A DNA stretch of 64,000 nt, taken from sequence record OP168898.1. One strand, given 5' to 3'. Under the pieces are notes generated by a model. The model saw only the letters and a program-made list of their open reading frames with translations, did no database searches and was not told where the DNA came from. Position 1 is the first letter of the stretch; each line of letters starts with the position of its first letter. Made by a program: the position numbers and the translations under genes. The stretch is from Escherichia phage ZCEC14. Positions 26,927-35,406 of the stretch are shown piece after piece.

Positions 26927-26999
26927 TGGGAATTAGCCAAGTTGGTAAGGCACTGGATTTTGATTCCAGGATGCAAAGGTTCGAGTCCTTTATTCCCAG
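26927..26999 (+). tRNA. tRNA-Gln (anticodon UUG)
   Basis: Acceptor TGGGAAT/ATTCCCA, anticodon loop TTTTGAT, T-arm GGTTCGAGTCC. Confidence 0.85.
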
Positions 27000-27000
27000 C

Positions 27001-27087
27001 GCGAGAATGGTCAAATTGGTAAAGGCACAGCACTTAAAATGCTGCGGAATGATTTCCTTGTGGGTTCGAGTCCCACTTCTCGCACCA
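27001..27087 (+). tRNA. tRNA-Leu (anticodon UAA), class II with long variable arm, CCA encoded
   Basis: Acceptor GCGAGAA/TTCTCGC, anticodon loop CTTAAAA, T-arm GGTTCGAGTCC, 3' ACCA. Confidence 0.85.
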
Positions 27088-27092
27088 AATTT

Positions 27093-27166
<74 letters not shown>

Positions 27167-27176
27167 ATTTAATTTA

Positions 27177-27250
27177 CTCCGTGTAGCTCAGTTTGGTAGA
27201 GCGCCTGATTTGGGATCAGGAGGTCCAAGGTTCAAATCCTTGTATGGAGA
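27177..27250 (+). tRNA. tRNA-Pro (anticodon UGG)
   Basis: D-arm TAGCTCAGTTTGGTAGAGC, anticodon loop TTTGGGA, T-arm GGTTCAAATCC; no encoded CCA. Confidence 0.8.
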
Positions 27251-27252
27251 CT

Positions 27253-27342
27253 GGAGGCGTGGCAGAGTGGTTTAATGCACCGGTCTTGAAAACCGGCAGT
27301 CGCTCCGGCGACTCATAGGTTCAAATCCTATCGCCTCCGCCA
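27253..27342 (+). tRNA. tRNA-Ser (anticodon UGA), class II, CCA encoded
   Basis: Acceptor GGAGGCG/CGCCTCC, anticodon loop CTTGAAA, long variable arm, T-arm GGTTCAAATCC. Confidence 0.85.
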
Positions 27343-27347
27343 GTTTT

Positions 27348-27423
27348 GCTGATTTAGCTCAGTAGGTAGAGCAACTCACTTGTAATGAGAAGGTCGGCGG
27401 TTCGATTCCGTCAATCAGCACCA
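27348..27423 (+). tRNA. tRNA-Thr (anticodon UGU)
   Basis: Acceptor GCTGATT/AATCAGC, anticodon loop CTTGTAA, T-arm GGTTCGATTCC, 3' ACCA. Confidence 0.85.
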
Positions 27424-27424
27424 A

Positions 27425-27499
27425 GGCCCTGTAGCTGGAAGGTTCAAGCAAGCGACTCATAATCGCCAGATGGTGGTTCAATTCCACCCAGGGCCACCA
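27425..27499 (+). tRNA. tRNA-Ile (anticodon CAU, presumably lysidine-modified; tRNA-Met not excluded)
   Basis: Acceptor GGCCCTG/CAGGGCC, anticodon loop CTCATAA, T-arm GGTGGTTCAATTCCACC, 3' ACCA; position matches T4 tRNA-Ile. Confidence 0.7.
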
Positions 27500-27511
27500 A
27501 ATTATGAATTA

Positions 27512-27598
27512 GGGGAGTTATCCCGTAGAGGTAGCGGTGTGGACTGTAAATCCATTGTCATTGCGACTCGGGTGGTTCGACTCCATCACTCCCCACCA
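27512..27598 (+). tRNA. tRNA-Tyr (anticodon GUA), class II with long variable arm
   Basis: Acceptor GGGGAGT/ACTCCCC perfect 7 bp, anticodon loop CTGTAAA, variable stem GTC-ATTGC-GAC, T-arm GGTGGTTCGACTCCATC, 3' ACCA. Confidence 0.7.
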
Positions 27599-27602
27599 AT
27601 TT

Positions 27603-27677
27603 GGATGTGTAGCTCAATGGCAGAGCGATCGCCTGTTAAGCGATTGGTTATAGGTTCGAATCCTATCACGTCCGCCA
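27603..27677 (+). tRNA. tRNA-Asn (anticodon GUU)
   Basis: Acceptor GGATGTG/CACGTCC, D-arm GCTCAATGGCAGAGC, anticodon loop CTGTTAA, T-arm AGGTTCGAATCCT, 3' GCCA. Confidence 0.75.
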
Positions 27678-27681
27678 AATC

Positions 27682-27757
27682 CGAGGCATAGCTCAGAAGG
27701 AAGAGCAAGGACCTTCTAAGTCCTGGGTCGTAGGTTCGATCCCTACTGCCTCGACCA
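27682..27757 (+). tRNA. tRNA-Arg (anticodon UCU)
   Basis: Acceptor CGAGGCA/TGCCTCG, D-arm TAGCTCAGAAGGAAGAGC, anticodon loop CTTCTAA, T-arm GGTTCGATCCC, 3' ACCA. Confidence 0.85.
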
Positions 27758-27775
27758 ATTATAAGTGAGGAAAAT

Positions 27776-28126
27776 ATGAAAGGTAATGTTTATTTAGTAG
27801 TTCATGATTTAACATTCTATTTTAATCATAATGATACTGTTATTTCTGAACGTGTAATTAATTTACTTTATCAGCATGCAGATTATGTTTATGTTGAAAA
27901 CGAATTTGGACATTGGCAATTTATTAAAAATCGTTCATTTGGTTTAGATGGTTACGAATATTTTGAACGTAAAGACCTTTTAGATAAAATTCCGTTATCT
28001 ACACAATATCAAAATCATAAGTCTTTATATAAATGTCGGCTAATTCGAAATGCTGAATCTGCGTATGAAGCAATTGATTTATGGCGTAAACGCCGTGAAC
28101 AGATTGATGCTTTAAAAGAATATTAA
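27776..28126 (+). CDS. Hypothetical protein (116 aa)
   Basis: ORF with RBS GAGGAAAAT immediately after tRNA-Arg; analogous to T4 tRNA.x ORFs by position. Confidence 0.55.
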   Translation: MKGNVYLVVHDLTFYFNHNDTVISERVINLLYQHADYVYVENEFGHWQFIKNRSFGLDGYEYFERKDLLDKIPLSTQYQNHKSLYKCRLIRNAESAYEAIDLWRKRREQIDALKEY

Positions 28127-31855: not shown

Positions 31856-33096
<1,241 letters not shown>

Positions 33097-33107
33097 TTGT
33101 TTACTTC

Positions 33108-33130
33108 CTCCAAGGGTTTTGATATTATAC
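33108..33130 (+). promoter_or_regulatory. T4-type early promoter
   Basis: GTTTAC 33108-33113, GATATTATA -10; drives truncated denV-like ORF. Confidence 0.5.
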
Positions 33131-33155
33131 ATTCATCAACTACTTGGAGGAAATT

Positions 33156-33296
33156 ATGACCCGTATCAATTTAACACTTGTTTCTGAATTGACCGACCAA
33201 CATCTTATGGCTGAGTATCGTGAATTACCACGCGTATTTGGTGCAGTCCGTGAACATGTTCAAAACGGTTTACGCTTAAGTATTAATATGGTATAA
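33156..33296 (+). pseudogene. Truncated duplicate of denV 5' end (46 codons)
   Basis: Encodes [46 protein letters not shown], matching the first ~35 residues of denV at 34306 before diverging to a stop; same upstream TACTTGGAGG RBS. Confidence 0.7.
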
Positions 33297-33325
33297 TTAC
33301 TCTATCAAAACAAACAAGGAAACAC

Positions 33326-33904
33326 ATGAAAACATATCAAGAATTTATTGCCGAAGCTTCTGTAGTAAAGGCCAAAGGTATTAATAAAGATGAGTGGACC
33401 TACCGATCGGGAAACGGCTTTGACCCTAAAACAGCTCCTATTGAACGGTACTTAGCTACAAAGGCTTCCGACTTTAAAGCTTTCGCTTGGGAAGGACTTC
33501 GCTGGCGTACCGATCTAAATATTGAAGTTGATGGGCTTAAATTTGGCCATATTCAGGATGTTGTTGCTAGTAACTTAGACGCAGCTTTTGTTAAAGCCGA
33601 CGGTGACCTTCGTCGCTGGAATTTAAAACTGTTCTCTAAACAGAAAGGCCCGGTGTTTGTGCCTAAAGCTGGTAAATGGGTTATTGATAACAAATTAGCT
33701 AAGGCTGTCAACTACGCTGGTCTTGAATTTGCCAAGCATAAATCATCATGGAAAGGTCTTGATGCAATGGCTTTCCGTAAAGAATTTGCTGATGTTATGG
33801 CTAAAGGCGGCTTTAAGGCAGAACTAGATACCTCTAAAGGTACGTTTAAAGACGCTAATGTTCAGTACGCTTACGCCGTTGCTAATGCAGCCCGTAATTC
33901 CTAA
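33326..33904 (+). CDS. ipIII: Internal protein III
   Basis: 192 aa with MKTYQEFIAEA CTS leader; sequence recognised as T4 IPIII-like; position next to ipII/denV. Confidence 0.85.
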   Translation: MKTYQEFIAEASVVKAKGINKDEWTYRSGNGFDPKTAPIERYLATKASDFKAFAWEGLRWRTDLNIEVDGLKFGHIQDVVASNLDAAFVKADGDLRRWNLKLFSKQKGPVFVPKAGKWVIDNKLAKAVNYAGLEFAKHKSSWKGLDAMAFRKEFADVMAKGGFKAELDTSKGTFKDANVQYAYAVANAARNS

Positions 33905-33945
33905 TAAAGCTAATACTCAGACCTATTTACATTTAAAGGAAACAT

Positions 33946-34248
33946 ATGAAAACATATCAAGAATTTATTACTGAAGCGCGAGTGAGTGCAGGTAAATTAG
34001 AAGCCGCTATAAATAAAAAGGCCCATTCATTTCATGATTTGTCCGATAAAGACCGTAAGAAACTTGTAAGCCTTTATATTGACAAAGAGCGTATTCTCGC
34101 TCTTCCTGGCGCTAATGAAGGTAAACAGGCCAAGCCTTTGAATGCTGTCGAAAAGAAAATTGATAACTTTGCTTCTAAATTCGGTATGTCTATGGATGAC
34201 CTTCAGCAAGCGGCTATCGAAGCAGCTAAAGTAATTAAAGGTAAATAA
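33946..34248 (+). CDS. ipII: Internal protein II
   Basis: 100 aa with MKTYQEFITEA leader; size and position as T4 IPII. Confidence 0.85.
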   Translation: MKTYQEFITEARVSAGKLEAAINKKAHSFHDLSDKDRKKLVSLYIDKERILALPGANEGKQAKPLNAVEKKIDNFASKFGMSMDDLQQAAIEAAKVIKGK

Positions 34249-34250
34249 CA

Positions 34251-34282
34251 GTTTACTTTCTCCTAGAATTGTGATAGTATAA
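34251..34282 (+). promoter_or_regulatory. T4-type early promoter for denV
   Basis: GTTTAC 34251-34256, TGATAGTATAAT extended -10, RBS TGGAGGGGTAAAATG. Confidence 0.6.
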
Positions 34283-34305
34283 TCATAATTACTTGGAGGG
34301 GTAAA

Positions 34306-34722
34306 ATGACTCGTATTAATTTGACTTTAGTATCTGAACTTGCTGATCAACATTTAATCGCGGAATACCGTGAATTGCCACGTGTTTTTGGTATAATTCG
34401 TAAACACGTGGCAAATGGTAAACGGGTTAAAGATTTTAAAATATCTTCCGAGTTTATTTTAGGTTCTGGTCATGTTACGTTCTTTTACGATAAGTTAGAA
34501 TTTTTGCGAAAGCGTCAATCAGACATTATAACGGAATGCTTAAAACGCGGGTTTAGTATAAAAGATACTGAAGTTCCTGATATCAGTGATATTCCAGTAG
34601 AATGGAAAAATGATTATAATCCATGCAAATCAGCTATTAAGTTGAGTCAACAACGACTCGATGAAAAAATTTTAATGAAGCCGCACTGGTATAAGTATTA
34701 CGGCAAAAATATTTACATTTAA
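34306..34722 (+). CDS. denV: Endonuclease V (pyrimidine dimer DNA glycosylase / AP lyase)
   Basis: 138 aa as T4 DenV; N-terminus [17 protein letters not shown]...[10 protein letters not shown] recognised. Confidence 0.9.
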
Positions 34723-34866
34723 ATAACATGGGAACAAGCTGGACCTCATGATTCTGTGAGGGATTCCCGCCAACCTGTAATAAGGTCGAGCCCAAGCGCG
34801 GTAATGGGTAAATACAGAAATGGACAATTCATGCGCCACGGAATGGCCCAAACTTAGAGAGAAGAA

Positions 34867-35406
34867 ATGAGAACATTTTTAACTGGTCCTTATCTATCCC
34901 TGATGAATGCTTTTACACACCATTCTGATGCTAGAGTAGAAGAAATTTGTAAAAACGAATATATCCCGCCATTTGAAGACTTACTTAAACAGTATTGCAC
35001 ACTTCGACTAGACGGTGGACGTCAATCCGGTAAATCAATTGCTGTGACTAACTTTGCTGCTAATTGGCTGTATGATGGCGGAACAGTTATTGTTCTTTCT
35101 AATACTTCAGCTTACGCTAAAATTTCTGCAAATAACATTAAAAAGGAATTTTCGCGTTATTCTAATGATGATATACGTTTTCGTTTATTTACTGATTCTG
35201 TACGCAGTTTTATTGGTAATAAAGGAAGCAAGTTCAGAGGTTTATCGCTTTCGCGAATTTTGTATATAATTGATGAGCCTGTCAAATCTCCTGATATGGA
35301 TAAGATTTATAGTGTCCATATTGACACTGTGCAACACTGCTGCAATAGTAAATGCTGCATTGGTGGTATTACTCGTCCGCAGTTTTTCGTAATCGGAATG
35401 CAATGA
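34867..35406 (+). CDS. Small P-loop NTPase-like protein (179 aa)
   Basis: Walker A-like GGRQSGKS and Walker B-like ILYIIDE; position corresponds to T4 vs.x ORFs. Confidence 0.5.
   Translation: MRTFLTGPYLSLMNAFTHHSDARVEEICKNEYIPPFEDLLKQYCTLRLDGGRQSGKSIAVTNFAANWLYDGGTVIVLSNTSAYAKISANNIKKEFSRYSNDDIRFRLFTDSVRSFIGNKGSKFRGLSLSRILYIIDEPVKSPDMDKIYSVHIDTVQHCCNSKCCIGGITRPQFFVIGMQ

Follow-up and report, generated by a model that had tools for sequence, protein, structure and literature searches.

A 46-codon reading frame upstream of ipIII in Escherichia phage ZCEC14, the probable 5' stump of a second denV allele

Why should a T4-like coliphage that carries an intact denV gene also carry, 1150 bp upstream of it and directly in front of ipIII, a short ORF that begins like endonuclease V and then breaks off? 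The ORF (33156–33296, plus strand; 46 codons plus stop) lies in a stretch of 64,000 nucleotides from Escherichia phage ZCEC14 (OP168898.1), the whole of which is referred to here as the window; this is the DNA of a T4-like coliphage, with 95–97 % nucleotide identity to Tequatrovirus vB_EcoM_G2133 (G2133 below) across most of its length. A preliminary description had taken the ORF for a truncated duplicate of the resident denV and for a scar of duplication or recombination that moved the ipIII–ipII block into, or next to, denV. We argue here that the ORF is very probably a young pseudogene, what is left of the 5' end of another denV allele distinct from the resident one, which arose when two gene orders recombined and one of the resulting copies was then deleted.

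The resemblance of the ORF to denV is confined to its first 38 codons (33156–33269, plus strand), over which stump and resident gene share 32 of 38 amino acids and 83 of 114 nucleotides. At 33269 the similarity ends abruptly, and past this point 11 of 27 nt match. The 46 aa product matches residues 1–41 of T4 endonuclease V (PDB 2END) with E=1.1e-18 and positions 1–41 of the 139 in phrog_1183 with E=5e-18, and scores 28.8 bits (cutoff 23) against the Pfam family Pyr_excise (PF03013) over profile positions 1–35 of 81 only; these profile and structure-sequence matches place the likeness far above chance. The preliminary description had located the ORF correctly, directly upstream of ipIII, and had seen rightly that its start follows the first ~35 residues of DenV before diverging, as well as the GTTTAC, −10 and denV-like RBS before it, which are present in both copies; what is shared with the resident gene at nucleotide level goes beyond the RBS. 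The remainder of the ORF, LRLSINMV plus stop (33270–33296, plus strand), is identical to the G2133 sequence 5' of ipIII, and is the ipIII promoter read in frame, not coding by origin.

Set against the T4 enzyme (PDB 2END/1VAS; PF03013), stump residues 1–38 align with DenV residues 1–38, which amounts to 38 of 138 residues, and the remainder of the fold is missing. There is no complete ~138 aa DenV domain: 38 of the 46 amino acids are homologous, residues 39–138 have been deleted, and the C-terminal WYKYY region of the fold has gone. What is retained is MTR...YRELPR, including Thr2, Arg3, Arg22, Glu23 and Arg26, which are catalytic and DNA-binding residues of T4 DenV, the N-terminal Thr2 and Glu23 being among the catalytic ones. 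Since it is about 100 of 138 residues short, the 46 aa peptide should be inactive, and the UV-repair glycosylase activity presumably comes from the intact downstream denV (34306–34722). Judged from its sequence, the ORF appears to be a gene fragment and not a functional member of the DenV family, and it is best labelled a denV pseudogene fragment, not endonuclease V.

The interval from e to vs.8 is found in T-even phages in two orders, the RB69 type (e–ipX–denV–IPs–vs.8) and the T4 type (e–ipIII–ipII–denV–vs.8), and the window has the RB69 order in its left half and the T4 order in its right half. All of the genes concerned are on the plus strand. The e lysozyme gene (32330–32818) is followed by ipX (32815–33096), which encodes a 93 aa internal head protein (phrog_3499 'internal head protein', E=1e-46) with an MKTY..EF capsid-targeting leader; the ipX leader and RBS form one repeat family (D1) with those of ipIII and ipII. 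Its place next to full-length denV in G2133, SP1, W143, AV112, JS09 and RB69 makes ipX a marker of the RB69-type left half. Beyond the stump, ipIII (33326–33904) and ipII (33946–34248), which match phrog_5341 and phrog_7857, form the cargo between the two denV copies and are 99.0 % identical to G2133 and 93–94 % identical to T4. The resident full-length denV (34306–34722, 138 aa; Pfam Pyr_excise E=1e-13, phrog_1183 E=4e-62), here called the 'B' allele, and a vs.8-like gene (34867–35406) complete the interval. A conserved promoter/RBS/leader block precedes every IP gene (repeat family D1), the block at 33263–33355 being common to RB69.

Both pure parental orders are found, the one in RB69, without a downstream remnant, and the other in T4 and in contig L096. 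The window's left half, from e through ipX to the 5' end of denV, has the arrangement of RB69 (e–ORF127 (ipX)–denV–ORF125–ORF124–ORF123–vs.8) at 88 % nucleotide identity, the three ORFs before vs.8 being IP-like, but RB69 differs in that its upstream denV is whole and that neither promoter nor gene of a downstream denV has left any trace. The order in G2133, W143, SP1 and AV112 is e–ipX–full-length denV (137 aa)–small IP-like ORF–ipIII–ipII–vs.8, without a full denV after ipII. A further configuration of the locus is the minimal arrangement of Logan contigs L093 and L094 (2447–4102), which is e–denV(B)–vs.8 with no internal-protein genes and with a DenV protein identical to that of the window.

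Some other features of the window may be recorded here. The vs.8-like protein has a Walker-A-like GGRQSGKS motif and a weak match to the large-terminase family phrog_2 (E=1e-5); its annotation in SP1 as 'large terminase subunit' is probably an over-call. Just 5' of the e start (32330) stand two exact T4 late-promoter motifs, TATAAATA, 13 bp apart at 32296–32316. Ten tRNA genes are clustered at 26927–27757, among them tRNA-Tyr and tRNA-Asn at 27512–27677, between a CAT-anticodon tRNA and tRNA-Arg; the counterpart of this interval in G2133 is a homing-endonuclease gene (annotated 'group I intron endonuclease'), and 27496–28125 of the window has no match to G2133.

The two denV copies belong to different alleles. 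The 'A' protein of G2133 is 90 % identical to T4 DenV, and the B protein of the window is 77 % identical to T4 and 75 % to A. The downstream gene is not a 'T4-type' allele, as T4 denV is closer to A than to B; a third allele, B, thus holds the T4 position. Versions at least 95 % identical to B are carried by 272 phage records, and its place in JE01, contig L096 and other genomes of T4 order is the T4 position after ipII; the denV(B) segment of the window is at best ~97 % identical to any record. PV654520.1, labelled 'Pseudomonas phage vB_PSGBLB0006', has a denV 99.3 % identical to that of the window, although such a host name is unexpected for a gene of T4-like coliphages.

The stump is pure A, of the RB69/G2133 type, up to its junction, and the resident gene is pure B from promoter to stop. 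Over 33085–33269 the stump is 98.4 % identical to G2133, whereas its coding part and that of the resident gene are 73 % identical in nucleotides; of the 31 differences, 21 fall on third codon positions. This preponderance of third-position differences indicates that the two sequences diverged over a long time as two functional genes, so that the stump did not come from a recent duplication of the resident denV. Against the aligned relatives (10 and 12 of them) the stump has 2 private changes in 185 nt, one in the −10 and one a nonsynonymous A>G at 33252 that turns the conserved Lys33 into Glu; two private substitutions in one genome are too few to prove decay or function. A reading of the stump as one part of a split gene was rejected, since an A-type denV 3' part was sought across the 64 kb window and none was found.

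How the upstream copy was cut short can be read from the comparison with G2133, in which an intact denV stands in the place of the stump. Two blastn blocks connect the genomes: 32300–33269 of the window corresponds to 1501–2470 of the G2133 sequence (L001) at 99.5 % identity, and 33263–34307 matches at 99.0 %. In the window the blocks share 7 nt; in G2133 they are separated by 565 bp, and this segment, which the window lacks, holds the rest of the 137 aa denV and a 58 aa ORF. A three-way alignment with both G2133 flanks places the heptamer AAACGGT once in codons 36–38 of denV(A) and once just 5' of the ipIII promoter GTTTAC; the window has a single copy (33263–33269, plus strand), which abuts the −35 box of that promoter. 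The truncation is a 565 bp deletion at this 7 bp microhomology. Identity to G2133 is 99.1–99.5 % across 32300–34305 and about 96 % elsewhere, which points to a recently shared segment. The small ORF lost together with denV(A) (L001 2783–2959; ORF125c in RB69) begins MYQEFIVEA, matches the internal-head-protein family phrog_2667 and resembles an IP gene that is short or has degenerated; in relatives it is 58 to 86 aa long, and it is absent in some (424 bp as against 565 bp spacing).

The same state before deletion is widespread. Megablast with 32800–33330 found about 240 phage records that match in two pieces ~850–1,100 bp apart, and an intact denV orthologue occupies the position of the stump in about 240 records, G2133, SP1, W143, AV112, JS09 and RB69 among them. 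The normal place of denV(A) thus appears from the compared sequences to be between ipX and the next internal-protein gene. Comparison of the junctions in relatives bears out one half of the preliminary description and not the other: the ORF is a non-functional scar and no chance match, and it came about by deletion at a position where relatives have a whole gene, not by duplication of the resident denV, to which it is so much less similar than to the full-length allele in G2133. Nor does the proposed movement of the ipIII–ipII block into denV agree with a stump that is pure A beside a full gene that is pure B, or with a deletion at a 7 bp microhomology relative to G2133.

The deleted form itself was not found elsewhere. 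An exact 23-mer across the junction had no match in IMG/VR viral contigs; a 91 nt junction query against 50,697 phage records returned two-piece matches 424–519 bp apart only, and no junction; the arrangement of the window is absent from the same 50,697 records, none of which covers more than 87 % of 32300–34900; and the exact products of the 46 aa ORF (ATG start) and of a 50 aa ORF (TTG start) are not on record in the gene catalogue. The deletion is carried by one genome only among those searched, and the window is the only genome among those examined in which the upstream denV copy has been lost. As to copy number, tblastn (E<=1e-25) located denV in 737 records at 737 places, with no phage having two full denV genes, and a metagenome scan with ipX gave three loci only, each of which has a full-length denV(A) and lacks another complete copy. 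A tblastn search with the N-terminal 38 aa found 5 more places than records, for which the JS09 and TU01 stumps described below are candidates. The best denV match of ECO07P3 (OP172786.1, 67486–67710) covers residues 1–75 only, and this may be a truncated denV.

Relatives of the window have remnants on the other side of the ipIII–ipII block. Phages with an intact upstream denV(A) and ipIII–ipII keep a B-type promoter after ipII, followed by a deleted B-type denV; a promoter of the resident-denV type survives in this way, with the gene behind it deleted, in G2133, SP1 and JS09. In window coordinates, SP1, W143 and AV112 lack 34314–34651 (338 bp; junction GACTCG; 18 records), G2133 lacks 34308–34805 (498 bp; junction GGGTAAA; about 60 records) and JS09 and TU01 lack 34416–34701 (286 bp; junction GCAAA; at least these two), so that each of these downstream deletions has a microhomology of 5–7 bp. 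SP1, W143 and AV112 retain the last 21 codons of denV, 95 % identical to B, and the G2133 junction falls exactly where the window continues into denV(B).

In the Mosigvirus genomes JS09 (JS09_060) and TU01 (QYC95579) a ~36-codon N-terminal denV stump with promoter and RBS was likewise left by a short-homology deletion, adjoins IP genes and is accompanied by one intact denV, as in the window. It is the mirror image of the window's stump, since there the downstream B copy is the stump (42–45 aa, downstream of ipII; NC_024124.2, contig L091, 2808–2945; TU01, contig L090, 2817–2945) and the upstream A copy is intact, and it is older: the JS09-like stump shows R3Y, R22C and a change of the Shine–Dalgarno (SD) sequence from GGAGG to GGATG. 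It is a decaying pseudogene and mis-named, the RefSeq name in JS09 being 'endonuclease V N-glycosylase UV repair enzyme'. The IMG/VR contig IMGVR_UViG_2974787500_000001 (L019; 3176–5099) has the order e–ipX–denV–vs.8, without ipIII–ipII, and its denV is chimeric, of A type in its promoter and as far as about codon 28, and B from there on. It looks like what would result if an upstream A copy had crossed over with a B copy downstream. The pattern of reciprocal loss around ipIII–ipII was not found in the papers covered by keyword search.

Our working hypothesis is that homologous recombination between an RB69-order and a T4-order phage, at the conserved promoter/RBS/leader block preceding the IP genes, would have produced the order e–ipX–denV(A)–orfY–ipIII–ipII–denV(B)–vs.8, with two diverged denV genes, orfY being the small IP-like ORF. 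One copy would then have been redundant, and could be removed by a short-homology deletion, or both could be fused by a homologous crossover. In this phage the 565 bp deletion between the two AAACGGT sequences took out codons 39–137 of denV(A) together with orfY and spared the ipIII promoter, and in relatives the downstream copy was deleted instead. The deletions and their junctions can be seen in the genomes compared; the two-copy intermediate we infer from the reciprocal remnants and from L019, since none of the 737 records has two intact copies of denV. What is left in the window repeats the 5' end of the resident denV in direct orientation, over 170 bp and at roughly 75 % identity, and might therefore serve as substrate for further recombination excising ipIII–ipII.

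A different sequence of events, in which denV(A) was deleted in a G2133-like phage that had already lost its downstream copy and a B-type denV was then regained from a T4-order phage, would mean that a two-copy genome never existed in this lineage. Gene denV is non-essential in T4. As it is dispensable, loss followed by regain would give the same end state, and a denV(B) that is at best ~97 % identical to any record, next to a left flank 99 % identical to G2133, fits a separate import; some records, such as ECO07P3, do appear to have a partial denV only. This route nevertheless requires two rare events and a UV-sensitive intermediate, and the presence of an intact copy together with a remnant in four independent deletion types, as well as the chimeric gene of L019, is more simply explained by redundancy after duplication. 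The coincidence of the G2133 remnant junction with the point at which the window runs on into denV(B) also speaks against it, and we regard loss and regain as improbable.

PeSL (promoter-early stem-loop) cassettes and the shuffling of the internal-protein locus in T4-like phages have been described by Krisch and colleagues (Arbiol 2010, PMC2839356; Comeau 2014, PMC4122927; Repoila 1994, as cited there), and this locus is known as highly polymorphic. It is possible to imagine a PeSL-type mini-circle, made up of an ipIII–ipII cassette and a 5' fragment of denV, that integrated by a single crossover into the only denV of an e–ipX–denV–vs.8 genome and so duplicated its 5' end. The topology of stump, cargo and full gene is that of Campbell-type integration, PeSL mini-circles have been documented in RB49 and phi1 (PMC2839356), and a putative recipient order exists in L019. 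A crossover inside denV should, however, have left reciprocal chimeras, not a pure A stump and a pure B gene, and L019 cannot be the recipient because its switch from A to B, at about codon 28, lies upstream of the end of the stump. G2133 moreover is collinear with the window and 99 % identical to it on either side of the junction, which makes it a pre-deletion template from which a simple deletion is sufficient, and we think integration of a cassette quite unlikely.

The stump does share features with a PeSL of the T4/PST type: it has an early promoter, an associated inverted repeat, an SD and an ATG, and, bordering the variable ipX, denV and IP blocks, it lies at an indel border between close relatives. 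It departs from a PeSL in that the stem-loop of the latter, a terminator, lies upstream of the promoter, whereas that of the stump extends over promoter spacer, −10 and SD, with no T-run terminator found. The deletion, too, used a 7 bp repeat in coding sequence and just 5' of a promoter and was not an exchange between two PeSLs; 'small randomly homologous sequences' are the alternative deletion route given by Comeau et al. (PMC4122927).

The regulatory sequences in front of the stump have remained whole. The early-promoter-like site of the former upstream denV (33099–33128, plus strand) has a −35 GTTTAC at 33099–33104 and a −10 TATTAT at 33123–33128 with a 17 nt spacer; in the promoter scan it appears as TTTACT-17-TATTAT (33100–33128) with TG before the −10, and it fits the T4/PST PeSL promoter consensus TTTACW-N17-TAYWAT (PMC4122927). 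Its −10 has a C>T change private to the window, the 10 aligned relatives having TACTAT, and is nearer the consensus. An inverted repeat follows (33105–33152, plus strand), with its 5' arm (33105–33118) between −35 and −10 and its 3' arm at 33138–33152; the latter contains the SD GGAGG (33146–33150), ahead of the ATG at 33156, so that the stem pairs a CCTCC tract of the promoter spacer with the SD. The RNA fold of 33096–33160 has −19.7 kcal/mol and z=−4.55, none of 200 shuffles being as good, and the equivalent fold upstream of the resident denV has z=−4.56. That gene has its own promoter-like site, stem-loop and SD in the T4 position (34251–34305, plus strand), and both copies share GTTTAC (33099; 34251), a −10 and ACTTGGAGG with GGAGG (33146; 34295). 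In the T4 record X04567 the homologous element is entered as 'imperfect inverted repeat C/C'', and the RBS of denV falls within C'. A scan of 32700–34950 for intrinsic terminators found none.

Next in line is the early-promoter-like site of ipIII (33268–33297, plus strand; GTTTAC at 33268–33273, TATAAT at 33292–33297), which the deletion left intact and which the scan gave as TTTACG-17-TATAAT, 10/12 and TG-extended; a promoter block of this type precedes IP genes in G2133, SP1, AV112 and RB69. The stump promoter lies 169 bp upstream of it, measured from −35 to −35. With a good −10 and with SD and ATG intact, the stump is probably still transcribed early and translated into the 46 aa peptide, and its promoter may add early transcription into ipIII–ipII–denV. 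In read-through transcripts from e and ipX the predicted stem-loop would sequester the SD, and in transcripts from the stump's own promoter, from which the 5' arm is absent, the SD would be free; the same logic is known for T4 gene e.

It could be asked whether the stump is functional and under selection, either through its 46 aa product, which might be a small peptide that binds DNA, or through the retained promoter cassette, which might add early transcription and so boost the anti-restriction proteins Ip3 and Ip2. SD and start codon are intact, the private −10 change from TACTAT to TATTAT is towards the consensus and both promoters were spared by the deletion; Ip2 and Ip3 inhibit GmrSD restriction enzymes (PMC12373910), and their dosage could matter. 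Against this stand the restriction of the stump to one genome, a peptide that spans 35 of 81 Pfam profile positions and 41 of 138 enzyme residues, the replacement of the conserved Lys33 by Glu, and the visible decay of the analogous JS09 stump, and we place little credence in a selected function. An assembly artefact from a mixed lysate of RB69-order and T4-order phages is less likely still. Both parental orders are common among coliphages and the arrangement is unique, yet a mis-join would be expected in the long, 99 % identical ipIII–ipII block and would give two full genes; a clean 565 bp loss at a 7 bp repeat, far shorter than assembler k-mers, is not what such an error would leave, and similar short-homology deletions have occurred independently in other genomes. 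In-situ duplication of the 5' end of the resident denV, for which similar promoters, RBSs and 38 codons might speak, is refuted by a divergence from that gene that is old and bears the mark of purifying selection, set beside near-identity to the G2133 allele, and hardly deserves further consideration.

The young A-type stump that we favour invites speculation about the locus as a whole. One tentative possibility, which we would not put forward as the likelier case, is that the interval from e to vs.8 acts as a recombination 'switchyard', in which the two orders recombine repeatedly and short-lived two-denV genomes are resolved by reciprocal loss or by crossover between A and B. The diverged 5' ends of denV with their promoter/stem-loop cassettes, stumps included, might then be portable homology for the gain, loss and swapping of anti-restriction IP genes (ip2, ip3 and others), and the stump of the window a usable landing pad and an extra early promoter for ipIII–ipII.

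Events of the kind described here are known; the arrangement seen in the window is, within the genomes searched, new. The stump leaves knowledge of DenV, and of phage recombination in principle, unchanged; it is an ordinary pseudogene scar, informative mainly on the reshuffling of this T-even locus. As such it offers a clean, sequence-resolved case of how homologous recombination, acting on a gene-order polymorphism, can leave a T4-like phage with two copies of a gene. Short-homology deletions, at least four of them independent, then disposed of the redundancy, and in L019 it was apparently a crossover of one copy with the other that did so. The products of T4 ipIII–ipII inhibit distinct GmrSD type IV restriction enzymes (PMC12373910), and because these genes are the cargo, the mechanics of the locus bear on how T-even phages exchange anti-defence genes; inhibition of GmrSD enzymes by the cargo is a plausible selective context for the shuffling.
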